24,790 bases of DNA from a virus (Duplodnaviria > Heunggongvirae > Uroviricota > Caudoviricetes). The stretch lies in the IMG/VR virus record IMGVR_UViG_2711768033_000002. One strand, given 5' to 3'. Positions within the stretch are counted from its first letter, which is position 1. Each line of letters begins with the position of its first letter. Of the stretch, positions 1 through 23,533 are shown one piece after another. The position numbers were made by a program, and so were the translations under genes. The notes beneath the pieces were generated by a model. The model worked only from the letters and a program-made list of their open reading frames with translations, searched no databases and was not told the DNA's origin.

Positions 1-20
1 TAATTACCTCTCGCTTTTCT

Positions 21-49
21 GCAATAAAAAAGGCGCCATTTCTGGCGCC
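21..49 (-). terminator. Rho-independent terminator downstream of J
   Basis: Plus 32-37 ggcgcc, loop atttct, 44-49 ggcgcc; on the minus strand the hairpin is followed by TTTTTTATTGC (complement of plus 21-31). Lies 20 nt past the J stop (69-71). Confidence 0.55.
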
Positions 50-68
50 CGTATATGGGTTATAAAAT

Positions 69-3000
69 TCAGCTGATACTGATGCCTGCGGTGGCTTTCT
101 TCATCACCACAACCAGCAAATCGCTGATACTTGCTGTGGGATACCAGTCATTTACCAGCCATGCTGACACCGAAAACTCCAGCGTCATGTGGCCGTGACC
201 AGCTGGCATATCAATAACACCACTGTAAATCAGCGTATTATCCAGCGCGGTACGGTTATAAATTTCAGCACCATTTTTCTTCACTATCAGGCGGCATGAG
301 GAGTAAATATCAGTATGCTCTCTCTCATGTTTAGCACCGCTGAATGCCACCGCCGGAATAACAATCTGCCGGTCAAACGGCTGATCGTCATAAATCCTGA
401 CGGTAATGGTCCCTGATGGCCACCGCTCCGGTGCCCGGGAGTCCCGCGGGAAAGCCTTACCCACTGTTTTGACAATATCGCCTTCAATCTGGTTGGCTGA
501 CAGTTTCCCTTTAATCTGACAGTTCTCATTTATCGTAACGTTGTTGAGCGTCCCGGCGTTCGCATTCACACTGCCACTGATATCTGCATTTTTAGCGGTC
601 AGCTTTCCGTCCGGTGTCATGGAAAATGCAGGAGGATTACCGCCGCTGGTAATGGTGGGAGCCGTCAGATATTTCAGGAACACTTCATTCATGAATATCT
701 GATCACCCTGACCAACAAACATCGGTTTTGTGTTGCCATTTGCAGGATTAATCATCGCAATCCTGTCTGCCGCCAGCAGCACCTGACTCTGCATGCCGTC
801 GGGGGTGTTCTCAATACCGGCACCGATACCCGCAATATAAAGGCGTCCGTCCTGCATCTGCTGCAGCTTCACAGCCCACATGCTGTTCAGATTATTATTT
901 GTATCAACCTGAACCTTCTGTATCTGCTGGATCGCTGCACTCTGGTCTTCCAGTTTCTTATTGACGGTCTGTGTGATTTCATTGCTGACATCCGTAATGG
1001 ACGTCCTGATTTCAGCCAGGTCAGGCGCAAGCTGACCGTTATCAATCTGCGTCCACAGCTCCTGAGCCAGATGGGTTTTCCCTATCTCGCCTTTGAAAAA
1101 ATCCAGATAGCCGGATGCGTCATCACTCGGCTGACCAACAGCCTCCACGAATGCCGATTTGCCAACGGTGTTCACACTGCGAACGTAAAAATAATAATTA
1201 TGGCCCGGCCTGATATTGATACTGGCGGCTATCCAGTACAGCGCCGTACCAAGATAGCGGGCTGTGGTTTCAACCTGCCTGATATCCGCAATCCGCTTTT
1301 CCGAGAACCAGAACTCAAACTGTACCGTCGGGTCATAAACGGCAAGATGCGGCGTGGCGGTTATCTGAAAATAGCCCGGCGTCAGCTCAAGCCGCGACGG
1401 CACTGCAGGTGCGGCAATCCGGAACGATACCGATGCCGGATCGCCCTGCTGCCCCCACGCATTTACCGCCCGGACTGTCAGCCTGTAGTTCCCTGGCGCC
1501 AGCTGCGTGAAGCGGTATGTGGTTTCCGTCGTCCGGGCCGTGCTGACCAGCCGCTCACTGCCGTCATCCGCTGCCACGGTCAGGCGAAGCAGGAAGCTCA
1601 CGCCCTTCACCACCTTCGGCGTGTCCCAGCGCGCCAGCACCTGATATTCCCCGCTGTCTGCGGTGACTTCGGCGGTCAGGTGCTGCACCGCTGGCGGCGT
1701 GACACCATTCACCGTGCCGCTCTGGTCGCCGTCAAAGTGCGCCCCGTTATCCACGATGGCTTCTTTTTCCGGTACATGCTGCACGGCAGTGATGGCATAC
1801 GTGCCGTCATCGTTCTCACGGATACTCACACAGCGGAACAGGCGCTGGCGCAGCGTCGGCAGCTTCAGCCCCCACACACTGTATTCTGCAACGCCGTCAG
1901 GAACCCGGTTCACTTTCACCTTAAGTCCGTCGGTGACGGACTGAACCTCCACGCTGACCGGATTACCACTTCCGTCAACCAGGCTTATCAGCGTGGTACC
2001 GGAGGATGGCAGCGTGATTTCACGGTCGAGCGTCAGCGTCCGGGTCTGGCTGTTCACCGCCAGCACGCGACCACCGGTGCTGATACCGGCATAGTCATCA
2101 TCGCAGATTTCAATGACATCCCCCGGTACATGGCGAAGCCCTTCCGCACCCACGCTGAAGTCCACGGTCTGCGTCTCCAGCAGTTCCGTTTTAATCAGCC
2201 ACAGCCCGGCGCGGTGTGCCTGCCCCCGGCTGGTACAGCCAAAGGCATCCATCTTCGTGACATTACGACCGTAACGGGCAATGGCCTGCGTATCTTCAAC
2301 AAGCTCTGTCGCCGTCTCCCAGCCGTTGTCCGGGTCAATCCAGTTCACCTCAACGGCATTATGGCGGTCCTTCAGGGCGCTGAAGCTGTAGCGGAACGGC
2401 GCGCCATCATCCGGCATCACCACATTACTGCGGTTATAGGTCCACACCTTATCCGACGGTCGGTCCTGCACGAACGTCAGCGTCTGCCCGTTCCATACCG
2501 GCATACAGCGCATCGCCGAGCAGAAATCACTGAGCACATCCCACGCCTTGCGCTGTGTGGTCAGGTACGCATTACAGGTGATGCGCGGCTCCGTGCCGCC
2601 AAAGCCGTCCGGCACTGACTGGTCGCAGTACTGGCCGATGACATACAGCGCCCATTTGTCCACATCCGCCGCACCAAGACGTTTCCCCATGCCGTAGCGT
2701 GGATGGGTCAGCATATCCCACAGACACCAGGCCATGTTATTGCTGTATGCTGGCTTAAACGTTCCGTCCCAGATACCGCTGTATTGCCGAGTCTGCGGGT
2801 TATAGTTCGACGGCACCTGCAGAATACGCCCGCGCAGATGATAATTACGGCTCACCTGCTGGCTGCCGAACTGCTCCGAATCCACCTGTACGCCGACCAG
2901 TGCCGTGTTCGGGTAGCACTGTTTCACATCGATGATTTCGGTGTATGACGACCAGAGCGTTTTGTTCTGCAGCTGGTCTGTGGTGCTGTCCGGCGTCATC

Positions 3001-3548
3001 CTGCGCATCCGGATATTGAACGGGCGCGGCGGCAGGTTACCCACCACCACCGATGCCAGATACTGCGAGGTGGTTTTGCCTTTAATGGTGATGTCTTTTT
3101 CCGTCACCCAGCCACCATTACGCTGTATCTGAACCAGCAGGCGGACTTCCGACGGATTCCGGTCCCCCTTTGAGGTGGTTTCCACCAGTGCCTGCACACC
3201 GAAGGTAAAGCGCAGACGGTCGATGTTTGCCGACGTGATGGTCCTGGTAATCGGCGTGTCGTACTTCACTTCCGTACCCAGCACCGTCTCGGAGCCGGAG
3301 GATTCAAATCCCTCCGGCGGTGTCTGCTCCTGCTCACCGGCCCGGAACACCACCGTGACGCCGGATATATTGGTATTCCCCTCACTGTCCAGCACCGGCG
3401 TACTGTTCAGCAGCACGCTTTTTAATCCGTCCACCGGACCTTCAACCGGCCCTTCGCTGATGGCATCGATCACACTCAGCAGCTGCGTGGACTTCAGGTT
3501 GTCCTTCGCTTCGCGCGGGGTATGCCCCTTACTGCTGCCTTTACCCAT
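69..3548 (-). CDS. J: Host specificity / central tail fiber protein J (lambda gpJ family)
   Basis: 1159 aa ORF; N-terminus [24 protein letters not shown] matches lambda J as I recall it; ATG at 3546-3548, TGA at 69-71; last gene of the tail operon after I. Confidence 0.93.
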
Positions 3549-3570
3549 TCGTCATGCTCCATAAACGATA

Positions 3571-3590
3571 AAACCGCCCGGAGGCGGTTT
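3571..3590 (-). other. Stem-loop in the I-J intergenic gap
   Basis: aaaccgcc / cgga / ggcggttt perfect 8-bp stem; on the minus strand it is followed by TATCGTTTATGGAG and then the J ATG. Possible attenuator or processing site; function is inferred. Confidence 0.3.
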
Positions 3591-3608
3591 CACATAAAAC
3601 ATTTTGCA

Positions 3609-4896: not shown

Positions 4897-5595
4897 TTAC
4901 TGCGAAAGTTTGTTAATGGAAAGGAAGCTGCCAAAGTTGCCGACATTATTGCGAAACTTACAGCCACTCAGGCATTTGCTGCATTTATCCTTCGTGATAT
5001 CGGACGTCGGCTGGTCATATTCATCCGCGACCGCCGGACCGCTATAACCGCACTCATCGCCGCGATAGGTCCAGGTGCAGGTGTTGGCCAGCATGATACG
5101 TCCCGGAAAAACAGCGCCATCCGTTTCAGTCGGCGTGGACAGTACAAAAGAGGCACTGACCGCGCTCAGTTCGCTGCACTGCTCGATGCGCCAGCGGCTG
5201 ATCACCTCCTGCTCCGGATCGGCTTCGCTGTTTCCGTTGACGAAGTTCACCGCATCCAGAAAGCGGGCGTAAACCTTACGCCGGACCACCGTTCCGCCGA
5301 CCAGACTCTGCAGATCTTCCGCCATCCCGGTGATCATGCCGTGCAGGTTAGAGACCGTCAGTGTCGGACGGGCAGCACTGCCCTTGCCGTTCATCTCAAA
5401 TCCACTCCCCTGAATGGGATAGGCCTGATACTGCCGACTCTGCCAGGTGACAGACTCACCTTTTTCGTTCTGCTCATTACAGAAAAAGTAGCGATCCCCG
5501 CCTACCTCGGTCAGGTCGATTTCCCAGAGCACCACGCTGGCCGACTGCTCCGCACGAATGCATTCATTCAGCGTTTCCTGTTGTATGTCCTGCAT
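4897..5595 (-). CDS. L: Minor tail protein L (lambda gpL family)
   Basis: 232 aa; [31 protein letters not shown] resembles lambda L; C-terminal Cys cluster; start overlaps the M stop (TGATG). Confidence 0.9.
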   Translation of the reverse strand: MQDIQQETLNECIRAEQSASVVLWEIDLTEVGGDRYFFCNEQNEKGESVTWQSRQYQAYPIQGSGFEMNGKGSAARPTLTVSNLHGMITGMAEDLQSLVGGTVVRRKVYARFLDAVNFVNGNSEADPEQEVISRWRIEQCSELSAVSASFVLSTPTETDGAVFPGRIMLANTCTWTYRGDECGYSGPAVADEYDQPTSDITKDKCSKCLSGCKFRNNVGNFGSFLSINKLSQ

Positions 5596-5933
5596 CAGAT
5601 CACCACTTCGTCAAACTGACACGAAAAATCGGTATAGGTGATATGTTCTGTCGCTGACCACGTTCGACACACCACTCTGATTTTTCTGTTAATACCCGGC
5701 GGGCGCCAAAAAAAAGATTTATAGCCTTCATGCCGGGCTAAAAATTTTTCAAATGAATCACGTTCATTCGCCTCAACTTTGAAATCACAGGTGAAAACGC
5801 GCAGAGAATGATTAAGTCCATTTGGACTTCGTTGCTCATAACCATCGCCAAATCTTACAGTTTTTATCGATGGTTTATTTTCTGTTTTCATTCCATCCTC
5901 TGGTAACCAGTGAAATTCTTCCGTATTAGCCAC
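5595..5933 (-). CDS. M: Minor tail protein M homolog (diverged from lambda gpM)
   Basis: 112 aa; [10 protein letters not shown] and C-terminal FDEVVI resemble lambda M (VRFGDGYSQR...FEQVVN); GTG start at 5931-5933 overlapping the tape-measure stop; an alternative ATG start is at 5889-5891. Confidence 0.78.
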
Positions 5934-8900
5934 TTAACATTCCCCCATCACGTCGCATATTTAACAGATTGCCCTGCACCCGCTGATCAACCATCCCCAT
6001 AAGTGCTTTTATTGCCTGAGGGCCAATCTCTCCATTCTGGCCGTCATTTTGAATAGTGATTTGGTATACAGGGGCATAGGTAATATCTCCGCCTCCATTA
6101 CCACTTTTACTATTAATAGCTCTGACACCAAGAGAACCATCGGAAGTTCGTGTTAATGGCATAATGGCTTCCGGTCCAGCCTCACCAAAAACACCAGCCC
6201 CTTTTGCAAAAGCAAAAAATTGCGGGGAATCATAAATACCGTTCGAATACGTGCTCAATGACGGAGACTCATAAACACCGCCCTTTGCATTCGGAATAAA
6301 TTTACTAATAGCACTCCCGATAGTTCCTAAAATCCCCCCAGAAGAACTGTTACTAATGCTGTCGAAAATCCCAGTAATTGAAGCCTTTAATGCTATTCGA
6401 CTAAGATCCGAAATCACGGAAGTAGCGAAAGAACGAAAATTTGCCTTGCCTGTCGTGACAAAATCACCCAGCGCATCGGTCATCCCATCAAACATCTGAG
6501 TCGTGGTTGATTTTATCTGCTCACTGATATCCTTAGTGTCATCCAGCCAGTTATTGAATCCCTGGGAGGCACCACTAACCCAGTCTCCTGCCTGAATATC
6601 GAGCTGCTCGTTTTTCTGTCTGACAATTTCTTTTTCCCGTTCCAGAGCATCATTCAGAGCCTGCATTTTCTCTTGAAAAACATGATCTGACATTCCACGG
6701 GATTTATCTGCATAGTCACGTTCAAGTTGCAGACGCTGATTGTTATATCCATGTTCAATCCGCAGTAATTCCTGCTGGCGTTGCTGATTTTTATCGCCAA
6801 CCCCATAACCAGCAATCTGAATATCATACCCCTGCTGACGATTATCAATCGAAGCCTGCAATGAATCACGCCATGCTGTTATTTCGGCGGATTCCTTGAT
6901 TAGCCTGTTATTTTTTTCAATCGCAACATTTTTCTCCATCAACGTGGTTATTTCTTCCCGGTGTAAGAGAAGCGATTTCTGATCCTGGGTTAATTTCGAT
7001 GATGGTCGTGACTCTAGGTCGGCAATCCGCTGACGCCACTTAACCAGTTCCTGTTCAGAGGAACTTAATTTAACGGTCAACTCAGCTTGTGAACTTAGTA
7101 ACGCATTCTGTTGATTCAGATGATCAATCATTCGTTGGGCTGCATCATCAGAATAATCTTTCGCCTTTGGTTGCTTTGGATCTTTATAACGCTCATTTAT
7201 TTGAGCGATAAGATTATTATATTCTTCCTTTGAATACTGATTCTTTAGCTTTTCCAGTTTTGCAAGTTCACTAGCTCTCTGCTGCTCCCGGGTCTGATAT
7301 TGTTTTGAAAAGGCATCTGCTCTCTGTCTGAGTTCAATTCCTTCCTGTTGTCGCTTGTTGTAATCGTTTATTGATGAATTTAGTACGTCCTGAGCAATTT
7401 TTTCTGCTTGAAGTACGCCCAATTGCTGCTTTAATCGTGCCAGCCTTTTATTTTGAGCTCCGCCATCTCCAATGCCACCTAACCCGAAAACTCCGGATCG
7501 GGTATTTTTTTCTATTTCATCAATTTGACGGAGAACATCTGAGATTTTTTGATCAAGGGAGGCCTCACGGCCAATATCCAGCATGGAATCCCATGCCCAT
7601 TTTGCGGAGTCTGCGACAGCTTTCCATGCAGTCTCAAGATAACCAAGATTTTCTTTAATCTGGTTGGTGCGCTGGATCATTGAGGATGAGTATTCTTCTG
7701 TCGCAATGCGGGCGGCCTCCTGCTGGTTCCCTTCATCCTGTAGCGCCTTAATCTGGTTATAAGTCGCAAGTGTCAGAAAATGGTACTGATCATTAAGTTT
7801 TGATATGGCACTGACAGGATCCTTTGCAATTTCATTGAAGTCATTAACCAGTTGTTCGGTTGATATTCCTGTTACTTCGCTCGTTTTTACTATCGCTGTC
7901 GTCACTTGCTCCAGCGAACTGCTCGCTACCTTTCCCGAACGCACAAGCTGATTTAATACTGCCGCCGCAGCACCAGTTGTCGAATCAGCCGCATTCCCGG
8001 CACGTTGAGCTAAATCGCCCAATTGCCCGCTGGTTGTCCCCAACTGATTTCCGGTAAGAATAAGAGATTTATTAAATTCGTCCTGCTCCTGAGAGCCTTT
8101 ATAGTAAGCCAGTCCTAAGACCCCAACGGCTGCTGCGGCCAGGGTAAAAGGATTAATTAATCCCAGCACATAAGAACCTACCCCTTTGATCGCCGGGCCA
8201 ATCCCACCGAACATATCTTTTAGCTGGCCGCCCTGCTGCATTAACACCATAAATGGCGACTGACCAGTGGACAACCCAACAACAATATCCGTCATTTGTG
8301 CAGGCAACATGCGCATAGCAAAAGCCGTTTGTTTTGCCGACATTCCGGTTTTGCTTAATTGTGATTGAGTAACCTCAAGCTCACTCCGCATAGCACGAAG
8401 TTTTCCAGAAAGCTCCTCATACATTTCAGGAGAAAGCATCCCCTTAGCTTTTGCTTCATTGAGCTGTTTCTGTTGTTCTACCAGACGATTAAAAGCAGTT
8501 CCGACAGGATCAAGTTGAGCAATCAGACGTTGCAAAGCAACAACCTGTTCATCATGCGCTTTTGCTGCTTCTCGCTCTGCCTGAGCCTCTCCGGTAAGCT
8601 CTCGCCGTGTTTCCTGTATTTTTCGGCTATAATTCTCAAACTGAGAACCATTTATTTTCCCGGATGCAAACGCAGCATTAAGTTCATCATGCTGTTGTTC
8701 AAGATTTCTTAGCGCCGCAGCCAGAGGGTCGATCTTGTCCAGCATTCTTTGAAAGGCCTGAGCCTGCGCTTCCTGCTGGGCGGCAGCAAGTTTTCCGGCC
8801 TTCTCGGCTTCTCTCTGCGCTTGCGCAACCCCGCTCAATTCCTCTGTGGTTTCATTAAGTTTACGGACAAGAAATTCATATTCTTCTTTATCAATAAGCC

Positions 8901-9159
8901 CTTTATCGAAAAATTTCTTTAATTCAGAATAGCGTCGACCGACAGTATCAATTGCGGCACCAACTGGATCAATAGCTGCTTTTAATTTTGCGAGCGCGTT
9001 CTTCTCATCTTCTGTTGCCTTAGTCACTTTCCCTGCGCTATTTGCAGCAGTTTCCCCAGCCTGCGTCATTTTGACTAATGAGGAGGTCAGATTGTCAGCA
9101 TTATTTTTCGCTCCAGTGCTATCAATAATTATTGCGAGACGCGAGGTTTGCTCTGCCAT
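5926..9159 (-). CDS. Tail tape measure protein
   Basis: 1077 aa; coiled-coil-rich N-terminal half, hydrophobic Gly-rich segment ([18 protein letters not shown]), position between G/GT and M; ATG 9157-9159 preceded by AGGAG; TAA 5926-5928. Confidence 0.9.
8365..8980 (-). repeat. Three diverged tandem repeats of about 65 aa inside the tape measure N-terminal region
   Basis: Translation shows [20 protein letters not shown]...EELSG / [20 protein letters not shown]...RELTG / [20 protein letters not shown]...SELE; DNA coordinates are approximate. Confidence 0.5.
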
Positions 9160-19894: not shown

Positions 19895-20146
19895 TTAGTC
19901 CTGATTTTTATCCACCCTGAGTAGTTCGCGCAGAGCAAAGGCATCCCCTTTTCTGGCAAGCTTAAACAATGCCGCTCGTAACTCGGCTTCACCTTTCGCT
20001 CTGCCCTTACGGATGGCCGCATAAAAATCTGTCATTGCTTCCCGATTTTCTTTCAGTCGGTTCAGATCAACATCCAGAACGTCAGCGATTTGTTGTGCAG
20101 TCATCCGGCACGCTGCCAGAGACTCGACTTTCGAATACGGAATCAT
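19895..20146 (-). CDS. Small hypothetical protein, possibly DNA-binding
   Basis: 83 aa; ATG 20144-20146 preceded by GGGGGTG at 5 nt; stop is 3 nt before the terS ATG; overlaps the 3' end of the GT-like gene by 65 nt in another frame. Confidence 0.5.
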   Translation of the reverse strand: MIPYSKVESLAACRMTAQQIADVLDVDLNRLKENREAMTDFYAAIRKGRAKGEAELRAALFKLARKGDAFALRELLRVDKNQD

Positions 20147-21014
20147 TTGTCACCCCCATTGATATGCAGGGTGTCTTCTTCCTGTATTTTTCGTGAAGGA
20201 TTTTTACTGCAGCGTTGTTCCAGGTGACCTGATGGTGAATGCGTTTATGGCTGGCACCCATCAGTGAGATTTTTACGCACGACGGCGAATACATGACGGA
20301 GTAAAAACTTTTAACGTAGGTTCCGGAATCCAGATACAGCTCGGTCATTCCGCCGCTGTTTTTCTGCGTCTGTTTCTGCCCTAACTGGACAGCACCGATC
20401 GTCATAAACAATTCACCACAGCGACCGAGATTCGTGTACGTATTCACATCCTCGTTAATGCGCCCCATGAATGAGAACGGTCGATCAACCGAACAGATAA
20501 AGCTGTTCATTGCCTTGCGTTTCACCCACGAAGCATGGCCGCCATTGTCACCAAGAAAATCCCCGCCCTGCGACATAGCGATGGAAAGCGCGGGTATTGA
20601 TTCGTAATACGCCAGCATTTCAGAAAGGATCGCATCCAGTTTCCTTATCGGGAAATAGGCCTGGTCATAGTTGCGATCCACCCGAAACTGGAACTCGTGA
20701 TAATCATCATCGAGCTGAATGAAGTATTTACACCCGACCAGTTTTGCCAGGTCGAAACAGGCATTACGGGCGTAAAAAATTGAGCGGCGATCACCAAAAT
20801 TATCGGCTTCGTCAAAACGACTGGCAATATCGGCTTTGGAAAATACCAGCACCTGTTCACCAAATTCAGCCATGTACTGATGCCGTGTCTTATCTTCATC
20901 ATCAACAACGATAAAAATTTTCCCGGTATAGCCAGCACGACGCAACGTCCGGTAAGTCAGAACTTTGTCCGGTCGCCCGTGAGTCAGAATAAAGGCGCAA
21001 AAATCATCACGCAT
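20082..21014 (-). CDS. Soluble GT-A fold glycosyltransferase candidate
   Basis: 310 aa from ATG 21012-21014 (MRDDFCAFILTHGRPD...), with GGAGGAGGAGGAGGA immediately upstream as SD; the track start at 21038 is an alternative. Motifs KIFIVVDDED and KYFIQLDDDY are spaced like GT-A DxD motifs; no TM segments. Confidence 0.6.
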   Translation of the reverse strand: MRDDFCAFILTHGRPDKVLTYRTLRRAGYTGKIFIVVDDEDKTRHQYMAEFGEQVLVFSKADIASRFDEADNFGDRRSIFYARNACFDLAKLVGCKYFIQLDDDYHEFQFRVDRNYDQAYFPIRKLDAILSEMLAYYESIPALSIAMSQGGDFLGDNGGHASWVKRKAMNSFICSVDRPFSFMGRINEDVNTYTNLGRCGELFMTIGAVQLGQKQTQKNSGGMTELYLDSGTYVKSFYSVMYSPSCVKISLMGASHKRIHHQVTWNNAAVKILHEKYRKKTPCISMGVTNDSVFESRVSGSVPDDCTTNR

Positions 21015-21801
21015 ATTCCTCCTCCTCCTCCCCGCCATGCATGATCTCCACCATGCGCTGCGTCATTCGGACAAATCCATTTTCAATAGCCTGCTGATAA
21101 TCAATGATCACCAGCGCCGACTCCTCGAAAAGGCACTGAATTTCAGCGGGGGCATGAGCGTAATAGTCCGCAATTCTGCTGAAATTAAACACTGTGTGAC
21201 GTTCTGCCGCACACAGGAGGAATTTCTCAATATCAGGATCAAGGGACGCCGAACGTATCCGGCTGATCAGCTCCTGAGTTTTCGTATCGTCGTACAGTTC
21301 ACTGATATCCGGTTTACCGCCCGACGGCTCATAAACAGGCGTATCAATTTTCGTCGTATACGGCTCCTCCTCATTTCCTGTACCGGGCAAAACATCCGTC
21401 AACAGTTCATCAATTTCTGTCGGGATGAAGCCTGTCAGGGAGACATCAAAATCAGCATTGATTAGGTCCGACAGCTCCATCCGCAACAGATCTTCATCCC
21501 AGCCAGCATTCATCGGCAGGCGATTATCTGCCAGGCGGTACGCCTTTTTCTGCTCATCCGTCAGGCCAGACAGAACAATGACCGGAACAGAATCCATTTT
21601 GAGCATTTCAGCCGCCATAACACGACCGTGACCCGCAATAATTTCGCCCTTTTCGTCAATCAGCACCGGATTAGTCCAGCCGAATTGCTTAATACTTTCT
21701 ACCAGTTGTGCCACCTGCTCAGGGCTGTGCGTCCTGGCGTTGTGCGCATACGGTGACAATTCTTGTAATGGGCGATAGACTATCTTTAATTTCTCGCTCA
21801 T
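21007..21801 (-). CDS. ParB-like nuclease-domain protein
   Basis: 264 aa; N-terminal KIVYRPLQELSPYAHNARTHSPEQVAQLVESIKQFGWTNPVLIDEKGEIIAGHGRVMAA fits the ParB/Sulfiredoxin (ParBc) signature including GHGR; acidic C-terminus GGEEEEEYA. Confidence 0.8.
   Translation of the reverse strand: MSEKLKIVYRPLQELSPYAHNARTHSPEQVAQLVESIKQFGWTNPVLIDEKGEIIAGHGRVMAAEMLKMDSVPVIVLSGLTDEQKKAYRLADNRLPMNAGWDEDLLRMELSDLINADFDVSLTGFIPTEIDELLTDVLPGTGNEEEPYTTKIDTPVYEPSGGKPDISELYDDTKTQELISRIRSASLDPDIEKFLLCAAERHTVFNFSRIADYYAHAPAEIQCLFEESALVIIDYQQAIENGFVRMTQRMVEIMHGGEEEEEYA
21017..21031. repeat. (TCC)5 trinucleotide repeat
   Basis: Plus tcctcctcctcctcc; on the minus strand it encodes the EEEEE tail of the ParB-like protein and forms the GGAGG SD (or RRRR codons) for the downstream GT-like gene. 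Confidence 0.6.
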
Positions 21802-21938: not shown

Positions 21939-23396
21939 TTAGGAGCGCCAAAAAAAACCTGAAAACAATATAATAACAGGATAAATTTCAAGGCGACCAA
22001 GAATCATAGCTATGCACATTAAACATTTTGCAATGTCATTAAGCACTCCGAATGACGATGCAGTAGCCCCAAAACCTAATCCCATATTATTAATACATGC
22101 AGCCACTGTTGCAAATGATGTAAGAAAATCATATCCCATACCATTTAACACCAGTATAAAAAACACCGTGAAGAGAGTATAAAGAAAAAAGAAACTCCAT
22201 ACAGACCTCATTACACGATCTGTAACTATCTTCCCTCCTACATTTACACTCAACAACGCTCTGGGATGAGAAAGCTGATTTATCTCGTGTTTGCTTTGTT
22301 TGAAAAGTATAAGAAATCGAAGTGACTTAATTCCACCACAAGTTGAACCTATACATCCCCCAAAGAAACTTGACAACAGCAAAAACACTATCGTGTGCGT
22401 GGGCCAACTTGCATAATCCTGCGTAGCTAAACCATTATCAGTGAGCATGGAGCTGGCAAGAAAAAACGAATGAATAAAACTTCCATGCAAGTCATACATA
22501 CCTATATGCCAGACCTGGAAAGAGGTAACAATGATCACCCCTAAGGCTATTAACAGAAAGAAACGAAGTTCAATATCTCTGATTAAAGGTTTTATCGTTT
22601 TCCTGCTAATAACAATATACCAAAGAGTGAAGTTGAAAGCCGATAGCAGGGAAAAAGAACCAGCCACCAGCTCAACCAAATAGTTATTAAAATATCCGAT
22701 ACTCTCGCTATGAGTTGAGAAACCACCAAGCGAAACTGTGGAAATCCCGTGACAAATAGCATCAAACAAAGGCATTCCTGCAAGTCTATAACAGACAATA
22801 CAAGCAATACCTAATAAAGAATAAGTTATCCACAGTGTCCGTGACGTATCGGCCAGGCGGGGAGTGAGTTTGTCATCCTTAAATGGCCCCGGCATTTCTG
22901 ACTGATAAAGCTTTGCACCACCAATACCCAATAATGGCAATACAGCAACCGCCAGAACAATAACTCCTAAACCACCTATAAAATTTAACTGTGACCGATA
23001 GTACAAATATGCCCGAGGTAATGAACTAACATCATCAATTACAGTTGCTCCTGTTGTTGTTATTCCAGAAACCCCTTCAAACAGAGCATCAATGAACGTT
23101 AAATTAAGTTCTGAGTCAATCCATAAAGGGAATGCACTAATAACAGAAAACAAAATCCAAAACATTACAATTATAATAAACCCATCACGGGTACGTAATT
23201 GAATGCCAGATTTCTTAGTTGTATACCACGCTCCGCCACCAATGCAAAAAAATATAACGAAAGTTATAAAGAAAACGAACAGGCTTTTTTCTTTATAAAA
23301 CAATGCTACAACCATTGGTGGCAACATTGAAAGACTATAGAGCCAAACCAGGAACCCACACATATGAGTAACAACTCTTACATGAGATGTATTCAT
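21939..23396 (-). CDS. trkG: TrkH/TrkG-family potassium uptake membrane protein
   Basis: 485 aa from ATG 23394-23396 (MNTSHVRVV...); many TM segments; four TrkH-type filter motifs (SGITTTGATV, LGGFSTH, GGCIGSTCGG, NMGLGFG); markedly AT-rich; the prophage context matches the known location of trkG in Rac. Confidence 0.85.
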   Translation of the reverse strand: MNTSHVRVVTHMCGFLVWLYSLSMLPPMVVALFYKEKSLFVFFITFVIFFCIGGGAWYTTKKSGIQLRTRDGFIIIVMFWILFSVISAFPLWIDSELNLTFIDALFEGVSGITTTGATVIDDVSSLPRAYLYYRSQLNFIGGLGVIVLAVAVLPLLGIGGAKLYQSEMPGPFKDDKLTPRLADTSRTLWITYSLLGIACIVCYRLAGMPLFDAICHGISTVSLGGFSTHSESIGYFNNYLVELVAGSFSLLSAFNFTLWYIVISRKTIKPLIRDIELRFFLLIALGVIIVTSFQVWHIGMYDLHGSFIHSFFLASSMLTDNGLATQDYASWPTHTIVFLLLSSFFGGCIGSTCGGIKSLRFLILFKQSKHEINQLSHPRALLSVNVGGKIVTDRVMRSVWSFFFLYTLFTVFFILVLNGMGYDFLTSFATVAACINNMGLGFGATASSFGVLNDIAKCLMCIAMILGRLEIYPVIILFSGFFWRS

Positions 23397-23533
23397 ATCT
23401 AAATATTCTTTCAATTATAACCACCTTGCTGCAATATTATGATTATACTGTATAAAATTTAACTCCTCTTAGATCTTACTTCACTGTTCCTTATGAAACA
23501 ATCATCAAAATGAATCATATTGTAGTTAAGATT
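23397..23533 (-). promoter_or_regulatory. AT-rich putative promoter region for trkG
   Basis: Minus strand has two TATAAT hexamers (cagTATAATcat and ggtTATAATtga) within 50 nt of the trkG ATG; no good -35 match was found, so this is tentative. Confidence 0.3.

Follow-up and report, generated by a model that had tools for sequence, protein, structure and literature searches.

The window analysed here is the whole 24,790-nucleotide stretch of a Caudoviricetes virus record (IMG/VR IMGVR_UViG_2711768033_000002), and it carries a complete head–tail–lysis module. The list of open reading frames and their translation place an intact gene J of 1159 codons near one edge, on the minus strand. Directly upstream on the same strand lie genes with Phage_min_tail (M), Phage_tail_L, JAB plus NlpC/P60 (K) and Lambda_tail_I domains, giving the order M-L-K-I-J; in the closest relatives lom comes after J, and the corresponding position falls past the window edge. 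All six gpJ Pfam models score above their curated cut-offs and in canonical order (E-values 2e-30 to 3e-43): FNIII-A_GpJ (aa 86–207), Phage-tail_3 (aa 330–498), Ig_J (aa 610–714), Ig_J_second (aa 716–818), Phage_Tail_Tip and Ig_GpJ_C. Lambda gpJ (NP_040600; PDB 8iyk, 8xck, 8xcj) has the same gene position and the same order of hub, two FNIII/Ig domains, alpha-helical shaft, beta-prism and Ig-like receptor-binding domain (RBD), and the window RBD resembles its fold with a TM score of 0.77–0.80. Domain series, gene order and RBD fold all match, and the protein belongs to the lambda-type tip attachment protein (gpJ) family. The features discussed below are as follows.

69..3548, minus strand: gene J, tip attachment or central tail fibre protein (six Pfam gpJ domains above cut-off; 83% full-length identity to lambda J)
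1134..3548, minus strand: lambda-like body, hub and FNIII/Ig domains, aa 1 to ~805 (94–100% aa and 93–99% nt identity to lambda J; GC 0.591)
879..1133, minus strand: alpha-helical shaft region, long allele, aa ~806–890, between Ig_J_second (end 818) and Phage_Tail_Tip (start 872)
960..1043, minus strand: 28 residues that lambda J lacks, aa 836–863, from pairwise and multiple alignments, the exact edges depending on the alignment
549..935, minus strand: beta-prism central straight fibre, aa 872–1000 (Pfam Phage_Tail_Tip PF09327, E = 2.3e-30; aligns to chains of PDB 8xck, 8xcj and 9wca)
540..698, minus strand: conserved island, aa ~951–1003, 92% aa identity to lambda, a likely shaft/tip crossover site
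72..464, minus strand: receptor-binding domain, aa 1029–1159, of the PhiR55_1/WGPS2/VT1-Sakai class (Pfam Ig_GpJ_C PF12421, E = 6e-37)
414..455, minus strand: variable loop 1, aa 1032–1045, an indel-containing hypervariable block among five tip types and an inter-strand loop in the AF2 model
309..338, minus strand: variable loop 2, aa 1071–1080 (AF2 model and comparison of tip types)
231..251, minus strand: variable loop 3, aa 1100–1106, TALDNTL (same basis)
120..158, minus strand: variable loop 4, aa 1131–1143 (same basis)
21..50, minus strand: terminator-like hairpin and T-run, 19 nt past the J stop codon (consensus scan, pattern match only)

The hairpin found by the consensus scan has an 8-bp stem with six GC pairs, followed by TTTTTTATT; phages 21 and 434 have annotated terminators at the same place after J.

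We aligned J with lambda J (1132 aa), and the C-terminal part proved clearly less similar than the N-terminal part. In blocks of 50 residues, identity is 94–100% over aa 1–750 and 88% over aa 751–800, then 63%, 38% and 60% over aa 801–950, 92% over aa 951–1000, and 58%, 44% and 33% over aa 1001–1149. At the DNA level, identity to lambda is 0.93–0.99 up to aa ~795 and 0.17–0.35 thereafter. The first-pass annotation had let the lambda-like part run to residue ~850 and the divergent part cover the last ~300 residues, within window positions 69–1000. The contrast itself holds, with the break nearer aa 800–810 (window ~1130–1148), so that the divergent part measures ~355 aa and reaches window ~1140. 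Nor is that part uniform, as the island at aa 951–1003 retains 92–95% DNA identity to lambda. In the cryo-EM structure of lambda, gpJ residues 1–807 form the resolved part within the tip complex (PMC12617516).

The lower GC content of the C-terminal part, which had been read as a sign of a module swap, is real: GC falls from 0.591 over aa 1–800 to 0.50 over the remainder, and no window of 1077 nt inside the N-terminal part goes below 0.577. The same fall towards the C-terminus is present in every J gene compared (11 of 11), lambda's included (0.583, then 0.535 in the shaft and 0.557 in the tip), and it is therefore not indicative of a swap; we likewise rejected it as a sign of foreign origin. 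The average GC of the window is 0.487, to which the C-terminus of J returns, and the GC-rich outlier is instead L-K-I together with the N-terminal part of J.

The shaft, whose name and position we take from lambda gpJ (PMC11101478), is where the departure from lambda begins. Over aa 824–883 nucleotide identity is 17–35% to lambda versus 93–100% to phage 21, cdtI, PhiR55_1 and WGPS6, and the window shaft is 28 residues longer than that of lambda. Phage 21 thus carries an identical type of shaft allele, as do cdtI and WGPS6, whose overall architecture is also that of the window J. The peptide quoted by the first-pass annotation as an extra coiled-coil-like insert is found at aa 840–880. With respect to lambda there is indeed a net length difference of 28 aa; ‘extra’ is less apt, because the long form is the majority state. 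It occurs in phage 21, cdtI, PhiR55_1, VT1-Sakai, Stx1_14040, 1720a-02 and WGPS2/6, as well as in some two-thirds of the phage records that carry a J; the short form, without the 28 residues, is that of lambda, 434 and Tritos. The long shaft is thus the norm and lambda the exception, so structural models built on lambda understate how long the fibre usually is. If fully helical, the longer shaft would add ~4 nm of reach. Long shafts sit on at least four tip types (those of the window, 21, 434/cdtI and 1720a-02) and short shafts on two (the LamB tip of lambda and the OmpC tip of 434), so that shaft length carries no receptor information.

As for the coiled coil, a strict heptad a/d test gave a best occupancy of 0.58, equalled in 1176 of 5000 shuffles and hence not significant, and a periodicity test took its place. 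The hydrophobicity of the segment has a period of 3.60 residues, a value reached in 31 of 2000 shuffles, which is significant and indicates an amphipathic character. A single-sequence AF2 model of aa 790–1159, used for the helix call only and otherwise discarded (mean pLDDT 38.5; 54–73 in the stretch), predicts helices at aa 812–836 and 842–898. The period and this low-confidence helix hint that the segment may fit a helical bundle and not a strict heptad coiled coil.

When DNA identity is followed along J against several references, the best match changes with position. Over aa 805–950 it is 0.93–1.00 to phage 21, cdtI and WGPS6, and equally 93–100% to PhiR55_1, the shaft allele of the window being common to phages with three different tips (93–100%). 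Over the tip (aa ~1024–1159) a match is confined to genes of the PhiR55_1, WGPS2 and VT1-Sakai type (PhiR55_1 0.87–1.00; WGPS2 0.92–0.98; all others at most 0.72). Between the two, the island keeps 85–97% nt identity to lambda and cdtI, and the best-matching reference switches across it. Tritos combines a lambda-type shaft with a 434-type tip, and its junction must therefore lie in or near the island. WGPS6 compares with the window at 95–100% in the shaft, 60–80% in the N-terminal part and ~45% in the tip, a block pattern from which we conclude recombination and not gradual divergence. Diversifying selection is known to act on receptor-binding tips, and protein database matches form a near-continuous series from 99% down to 50% identity, as a single lineage accumulating point mutations with no exchange of modules might produce. 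Against this, identity steps are abrupt, from 0.9 to 0.2–0.3 within ~100 nt, and blocks recur at 95–100% nt identity beside neighbours at 45–80% (WGPS6, WGPS2, Tritos); we regard such gradual divergence as most improbable. Apparent breakpoints at window positions 1497, 2691 and 3609 in a whole-window BLAST were rejected as swaps in J, being contig ends of partial records.

In our reading, J very probably forms the central tail fibre, a trimer, of a lambdoid prophage of E. coli, and recombination has put it together from three or more blocks that can be exchanged. The first, the lambda-type hub/FNIII body (aa 1 to ~805), would plug into the M-L-K-I tail tip; the second (aa ~806–1000) would comprise the ‘long’ alpha-helical shaft and the beta-prism, an allele common in E. 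coli lambdoid phages; and the third (aa ~1024–1159) is the Ig-like RBD of a distinct allele class. Their joints would be conserved stretches that permit homologous crossover, one where the second Ig domain ends and the other at the SGGNPPAFS...NADISG island. The module swap proposed earlier is thus borne out by the abrupt identity steps, with at least two independent modules in place of one. Such a mosaic J is an everyday product of module exchange between lambdoid phages of E. coli, already known biology, and in itself has little significance beyond annotation.

We then compared the tip with the allele classes of known phages. Over the last 150 aa it is 97% identical to PhiR55_1, 95% to WGPS2 and 94% to VT1-Sakai, and 67% to phage 21, 66% to the engineered A8 gpJ chimera (PDB 9wca, 9wcb), 43% to lambda and 43% to 434. 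The differences gather in four loops, with variable and conserved loops alternating along the beta-sandwich and a framework identity of 48–74% outside the loops; loop identity is 44/44 to PhiR55_1, 43/44 to WGPS2, 47% to phage 21, 42% to A8, 36% to lambda and 17% to 434. On these figures the tip falls outside the LamB-specific lambda-type allele (43%; loops 36%) and outside the OmpC-specific 434-type allele (434, cdtI, WGPS6 and Tritos, at least 93% identical to one another), to which it is 43–44% identical, with loops at 15–17%. It also falls outside the phage 21/A8-type allele (77–89% mutual identity and shared loop lengths), the nearest other class yet a distinct one (63–67%; loops 42–47%). 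Loop lengths differ too: loop 1 has four residues more than in phage 21 and A8, and loop 2 lacks 5–6 residues that the phage 21, A8 and 434 types have. It does belong with the PhiR55_1/WGPS2/VT1-Sakai-type allele (at least 94% mutual identity, same loop lengths), at 94–97%. By sequence, then, the last ~135 aa of J are assigned to a fifth tip allele class.

An AF2 model of the tip built on a 34-sequence alignment (pLDDT 80.6) found its best Foldseek matches in A8 gpJ (9wca/9wcb) and lambda gpJ (8xck/8xcj), with TM scores of 0.76–0.80 and a probability of 1.00. OmpC is present in 9wcb and LamB in 8xcj. In a phmmer search of PDB sequences with J, A8 gpJ (9wca, 4e-128) again ranked first, with lambda gpJ at 1e-106. 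The strand order and the description of loops L1–L4 in lambda suggest that all four variable loops sit at the far end of the domain, towards the receptor.

This tip class is common to PhiR55_1, WGPS2, VT1-Sakai and hundreds of E. coli prophages. Over window positions 1–1200 there is 100% identity to genes annotated as gpJ in RefSeq genomes of E. coli. A match of at least 99% is shown by 187 E. coli records, many of them at 100%, and J homologues are nearly all from Escherichia or Shigella. PhiR55_1 (PV340571), which was grown on E. coli C, has a J of the same length (1159 aa), shaft form and RBD class, and groups with the J genes of WGPS2, VT1-Sakai (Sp15) and the PPompW prophages of O157:H7. 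Its DNA is 95.9% identical over window positions 1–3600, save for a patch at aa ~975–1045 where identity is 82–87% nt and the window is nearer cdtI, lambda or A8. The class is thus abundant in E. coli/EHEC prophages and has a cultured representative with identical loops. J is frameshifted in VT1-Sakai, of the same tip class, and in PhiR12_2, and many database matches are fragmentary, which would suit a gene in decay within a defective prophage, its distal part functionless. That the window reading frame is intact over its whole length, that many genomes carry the region with 100% conservation, that its J DNA is 96% identical to that of a plaque-forming phage, PhiR55_1, and that the head–tail–lysis module is complete make decay very unlikely.

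What kind of receptor the tip may engage is suggested by its relatives. Lambda uses LamB and phage 434 uses OmpC (PMC11101478). Phage 21 is a native LamB user that gained OmpC by one mutation and OmpF afterwards by mutation (PMC11336670). A8 gpJ uses OmpC (PMC11338833; PDB 9wcb); A8 and 1A2 are the other two natural gpJ tips that have been examined for receptors besides LamB, and both bind OmpC (PMC11338833); phi330, a close relative of WGPS6, is also an OmpC user (PMC12502783). 1A2 is an Eligo chimera specific for OmpC(EDL933). By analogy with these systems the receptor is probably a trimeric porin. Going by its homology with the solved lambda–LamB and A8–OmpC structures, the trimeric tip would attach to the porin in the outer membrane through its four distal variable loops, and binding would then trigger a rearrangement of the shaft that opens the tail.

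The first-pass annotation went further and took the divergent C-terminus to imply a receptor other than LamB. The tip is of a distinct class, its loops are only 36% identical to those of lambda, and a different receptor is plausible from the sequence; implied it is not, for tips that differ this much may or may not differ in receptor: phage 21, whose tip is 48% identical to that of lambda, keeps LamB, and A8, 81% identical to phage 21, uses OmpC. The tip might thus still use LamB as phage 21 does, its divergence being the outcome of an arms race against variant LamB proteins, or of an immune-type diversification, with no switch of receptor. The conserved framework fold and the identity of its nearest characterised relatives, phage 21 (67%) and A8 (66%), would accord with this. 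All four loops nevertheless differ from those of phage 21 (47% identity, with indels of 4–6 residues), A8 is nearer phage 21 than the window tip is and is already an OmpC user, and both natural tips, A8 and 1A2, bind OmpC. We therefore hold retention of LamB to be a minority prospect, albeit a serious one. Overall, OmpC or an OmpC variant seems the best single candidate, at somewhat short of an even chance, followed by OmpF or another outer-membrane protein and then, slightly behind, by LamB.

The literature searched in full text contained no receptor assignment for the PhiR55_1/WGPS2/VT1-Sakai tip class; a search on PhiR phage names returned only the SNIPE preprint, which includes no receptor test, and tip peptide motifs gave no literature matches. 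That the class recognises a receptor new for a lambda-type J, either a porin other than LamB, OmpC and OmpF (for example OmpN, NmpC or PhoE) or particular OmpC variants, strikes us as rather unlikely, a shade more so than retention of LamB; were it true, the distribution of the new receptor would shape which E. coli lineages exchange such prophages. Three PhiR phages carry this tip, and their hosts (E. coli C, ECOR13 and E. coli C, with no K-12) were considered as a receptor clue and set aside as too few, such a set being expected by chance at ~0.4 on a rough estimate.

That lambdoid phages swap the distal part of J with one another, and that such swapping plays a role in host range, is textbook knowledge. 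The same exchange has already been used in engineering, in the A8 and 1A2 chimeras.

Scored against lambda J (NC_001416) in 50-aa blocks, the J protein of the window is 94–100% identical up to aa 750 and 88% at aa 751–800. Identity falls to 63%, 38% and 60% in the successive blocks of aa 801–950, rises to 92% in a conserved island at aa 951–1000, and is 58%, 44% and 33% over aa 1001–1149. The first-pass annotation had described a lambda-like protein with a divergent C-terminus, and the alignment bears this out, but the break lies near aa 800–810, not 850, and the divergence, which it assigned to the last ∼300 residues, extends over ∼355 aa (window ∼69–1140) and is interrupted by the island. 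The C-terminal part is not as lambda-like as the N-terminal part, since blocks outside the island drop to 33–63%.

We then compared window J with ten other J genes by sliding-window DNA identity. The best-matching relative changes abruptly along the gene:

aa 1 to ∼795: lambda, phage 21, cdtI, PhiR55_1 (a cultured E. coli phage) and Tritos, 0.93–1.00; Stx-phage J genes, 0.6–0.85
aa ∼805–950: phage 21, cdtI, PhiR55_1 and WGPS6, 0.93–1.00; lambda, 434 and Tritos, 0.17–0.65
aa ∼954–1003: lambda and cdtI, 0.92–0.97
aa ∼1024–1159: PhiR55_1, 0.87–1.00; WGPS2, 0.92–0.98 from aa 1051; the rest, ≤ 0.72

WGPS6 matches window J at up to 100% in the shaft, 60–80% at the N-terminus and ∼45% at the tip. This pattern marks recombination at conserved linkers; gradual divergence is argued against by a shared shaft beside a dissimilar N-terminus and tip. 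The module swap proposed earlier is therefore right in general, as seen from DNA identity blocks with different best relatives. Exchange of distal J as a module is already well established; databases contain the window allele in abundance, and a cultured phage has a J gene that matches it at 96% DNA identity.

GC content is 0.591 at aa 1–800 and 0.50 for the remainder, and no N-terminal stretch equal in length to the divergent part falls below 0.577. The lower-GC C-terminus noted in the first-pass annotation is thus measurable, but carries no weight as a sign of a swap, because GC falls toward the C-terminus in all 11 J genes compared, lambda's own included (0.583, then 0.535 and 0.557). The average of the window is 0.487; what stands out is the GC-rich stretch made up of L-K-I and the N-terminal part of J, and not the tip. 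A 515-aa ORF on the strand opposite GC-rich J sequence (window 1071..2618, + strand) is most likely no gene but an effect of the high GC3 of J (0.72). An 80-aa ATG ORF lies out of frame inside the coding region of the receptor-binding domain (window 287..529, − strand), with no sign of expression.

The gpJ domain series is complete in window J (Pfam):

aa 86–207: FNIII-A_GpJ
aa 330–498: Phage-tail_3
aa 610–714: Ig_J
aa 716–818: Ig_J_second
aa 872–1000: Phage_Tail_Tip
aa 1029–1159: Ig_GpJ_C, the receptor-binding domain (tip)

The gap at aa 819–871 is the counterpart of the lambda gpJ alpha-helical shaft, which flips, part of it turning to beta-strand, upon LamB binding (PMC11101478). The peptide previously singled out as an insert is present at aa 840–880, and the net excess over lambda J, 28 aa (aa 836–863), falls within the shaft. 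A strict heptad test over aa 843–884 was not significant; hydrophobicity over aa 842–882 has a period of 3.60 residues (reached by 31 of 2000 shuffles), and aa 842–898 form one helix in a low-confidence, single-sequence AF2 model. We read the segment as a putative helical-bundle extension, not a canonical coiled coil.

The segment is present in J of phage 21 (1160 aa), cdtI (1165), PhiR55_1 (1159), VT1-Sakai, Stx1_14040, 1720a-02, WGPS2 and WGPS6, and absent from lambda, Tritos and 434. A tblastn search with aa 806–900 against 50,697 phage records returned 250. The long allele of the window is found in 65 of them at ≥ 95% identity; among records sampled at even intervals down the ranking, about one-third have a divergent long allele (57–65%) and about one-third a short lambda-type shaft. 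Calling the segment an extra insert therefore reverses the direction: the long shaft is common, and it is lambda, Tritos and 434 that lack it. Four or more tip types occur with the long shaft, and the short one is combined with a LamB tip in lambda and with an OmpC tip in 434, so the length of the shaft carries no receptor information.

Over the last 150 aa, J proteins split into five classes.

J tip classes: members (mutual identity); receptor; identity to window tip
Lambda: lambda; LamB; 43%
434: 434, cdtI, WGPS6, Tritos (93–97%); OmpC for 434; 43–44%
21: phage 21, Stx1_14040, A8 (77–89%); LamB for phage 21, OmpC for A8, an engineered chimera; 63–67%
1720a-02: 1720a-02; none found; 47%
Window: window, PhiR55_1, WGPS2, Stx2a_JNE090861, VT1-Sakai (94–98%); none found

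Phi330, a close relative of WGPS6, uses OmpC (PMC12502783). In VT1-Sakai, the Sakai Stx1 prophage (AP000400, 3069..6541), a frameshift splits J into two overlapping ORFs, annotated by the depositors as truncated by mutation. In the plaque-forming phage PhiR12_2 (PV340550, 3200..3960), the annotated J stops at aa 954; within the conserved '...QGD.IFMNE...' stretch the reading moves to another frame, which runs on into a further tip type (∼40% identity). A sequencing indel, a programmed frameshift or a split fibre may account for this.

An AF2 model of the tip (pLDDT 80.6) was built from an alignment of 34 sequences drawn from the database matches, which as a set are nearly all from Escherichia or Shigella. 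Its best PDB fold matches (TM 0.76–0.80) were A8 gpJ alone (9wca) and with OmpC (9wcb), and lambda gpJ alone (8xck) and with LamB (8xcj). In the beta-sandwich, variable loops alternate with conserved ones, so that the four variable loops should share one end of the tip:

aa 1032–1045
aa 1071–1080
aa 1100–1106
aa 1131–1143

By inference, these would be the counterparts of the 'bottom' loops L1–L4 that enter LamB in lambda gpJ (PMC11101478). Their identity to the window is 44/44 in PhiR55_1, 47% in phage 21, 42% in A8, 36% in lambda and 17% in 434; framework identity is 48–74%.

A literature search found no paper assigning a receptor to the window tip class. A porin is likely, because the characterized relatives all bind trimeric porins. 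Sequence cannot name which, because tip identity is defied by phage 21, which uses LamB and gains OmpC through a single mutation (PMC11336670), and A8, which uses OmpC (PMC11338833): their tips are 81% identical, and those of phage 21 and lambda 48%. OmpC or a variant of it is our leading, if tentative, candidate; some other receptor is rather doubtful, and LamB the least probable of the three. That the receptor differs from lambda's, as proposed in the first-pass annotation, is put forward as a hypothesis. The Eligo chimera 1A2, whose J source is a natural E. coli phage, delivers through EDL933-type OmpC only, and its J might belong to the window class.

The window holds late genes of a lambdoid prophage of E. 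coli, with every listed gene on the − strand:

− strand: lysis genes (lysozyme, Rz)
− strand: after these, a TrkH-family gene, a ParB_N protein and a TAGT glycosyltransferase
− strand: head genes (terminase small and large subunits, DUF4055 portal, Mu-F-like protein, P22-type coat)
− strand: tail genes (tail tube, 1077-aa tape measure, lambda-type tail-tip M, L, K, I, J)
69..3548, − strand: J, intact ORF, 1159 codons
50..31: terminator-like hairpin beyond the J end

Many complete E. coli chromosomes match bases 1–1200 at 100%, in a gene annotated gpJ, and a database search with these bases gave 187 records at ≥ 99% identity.

The tape measure (5926..9159, − strand; GC 0.449) differs from lambda H (853 aa) and is close in length to that of WGPS6 (1080 aa); a GC step lies near 5400–5700. 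Because the tape measure is unlike lambda H and the head is of P22-coat type, L-K-I and the J N-terminus make up a GC-rich (0.55–0.60) island of lambda type, joined to a head and tail tube that are not lambda's. Tape measure clades track ManYZ dependence, and PhiR55.1 is listed among phages modestly inhibited by SNIPE independently of ManYZ (preprint 10.1101/2025.11.03.685801).

The TrkH-family potassium/cation transporter (491 aa; 21939..23414, − strand; Pfam TrkH E = 5e-145) has the lysis genes on one side and the ParB_N/TAGT/terminase genes on the other, and is labelled Trk potassium uptake protein in related phage records; it resembles trkG, a moron carried by the Rac prophage. A TET-associated glycosyltransferase (PF20691 TAGT, E = 6e-35) and the ParB_N-domain protein overlap directly upstream of the gene for the small terminase subunit (20082..21801, − strand). 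The pair may serve in DNA modification or anti-restriction; the window showed no TET/JBP gene. 'Salmonella phage SPF_0923' (ON032529.1; host Salmonella sp. S7) aligns with 93% of the window, J included, and is 97.7% identical to it there; the other close relatives are all from E. coli, and this record reflects either an unusual host range or a mislabelled host.
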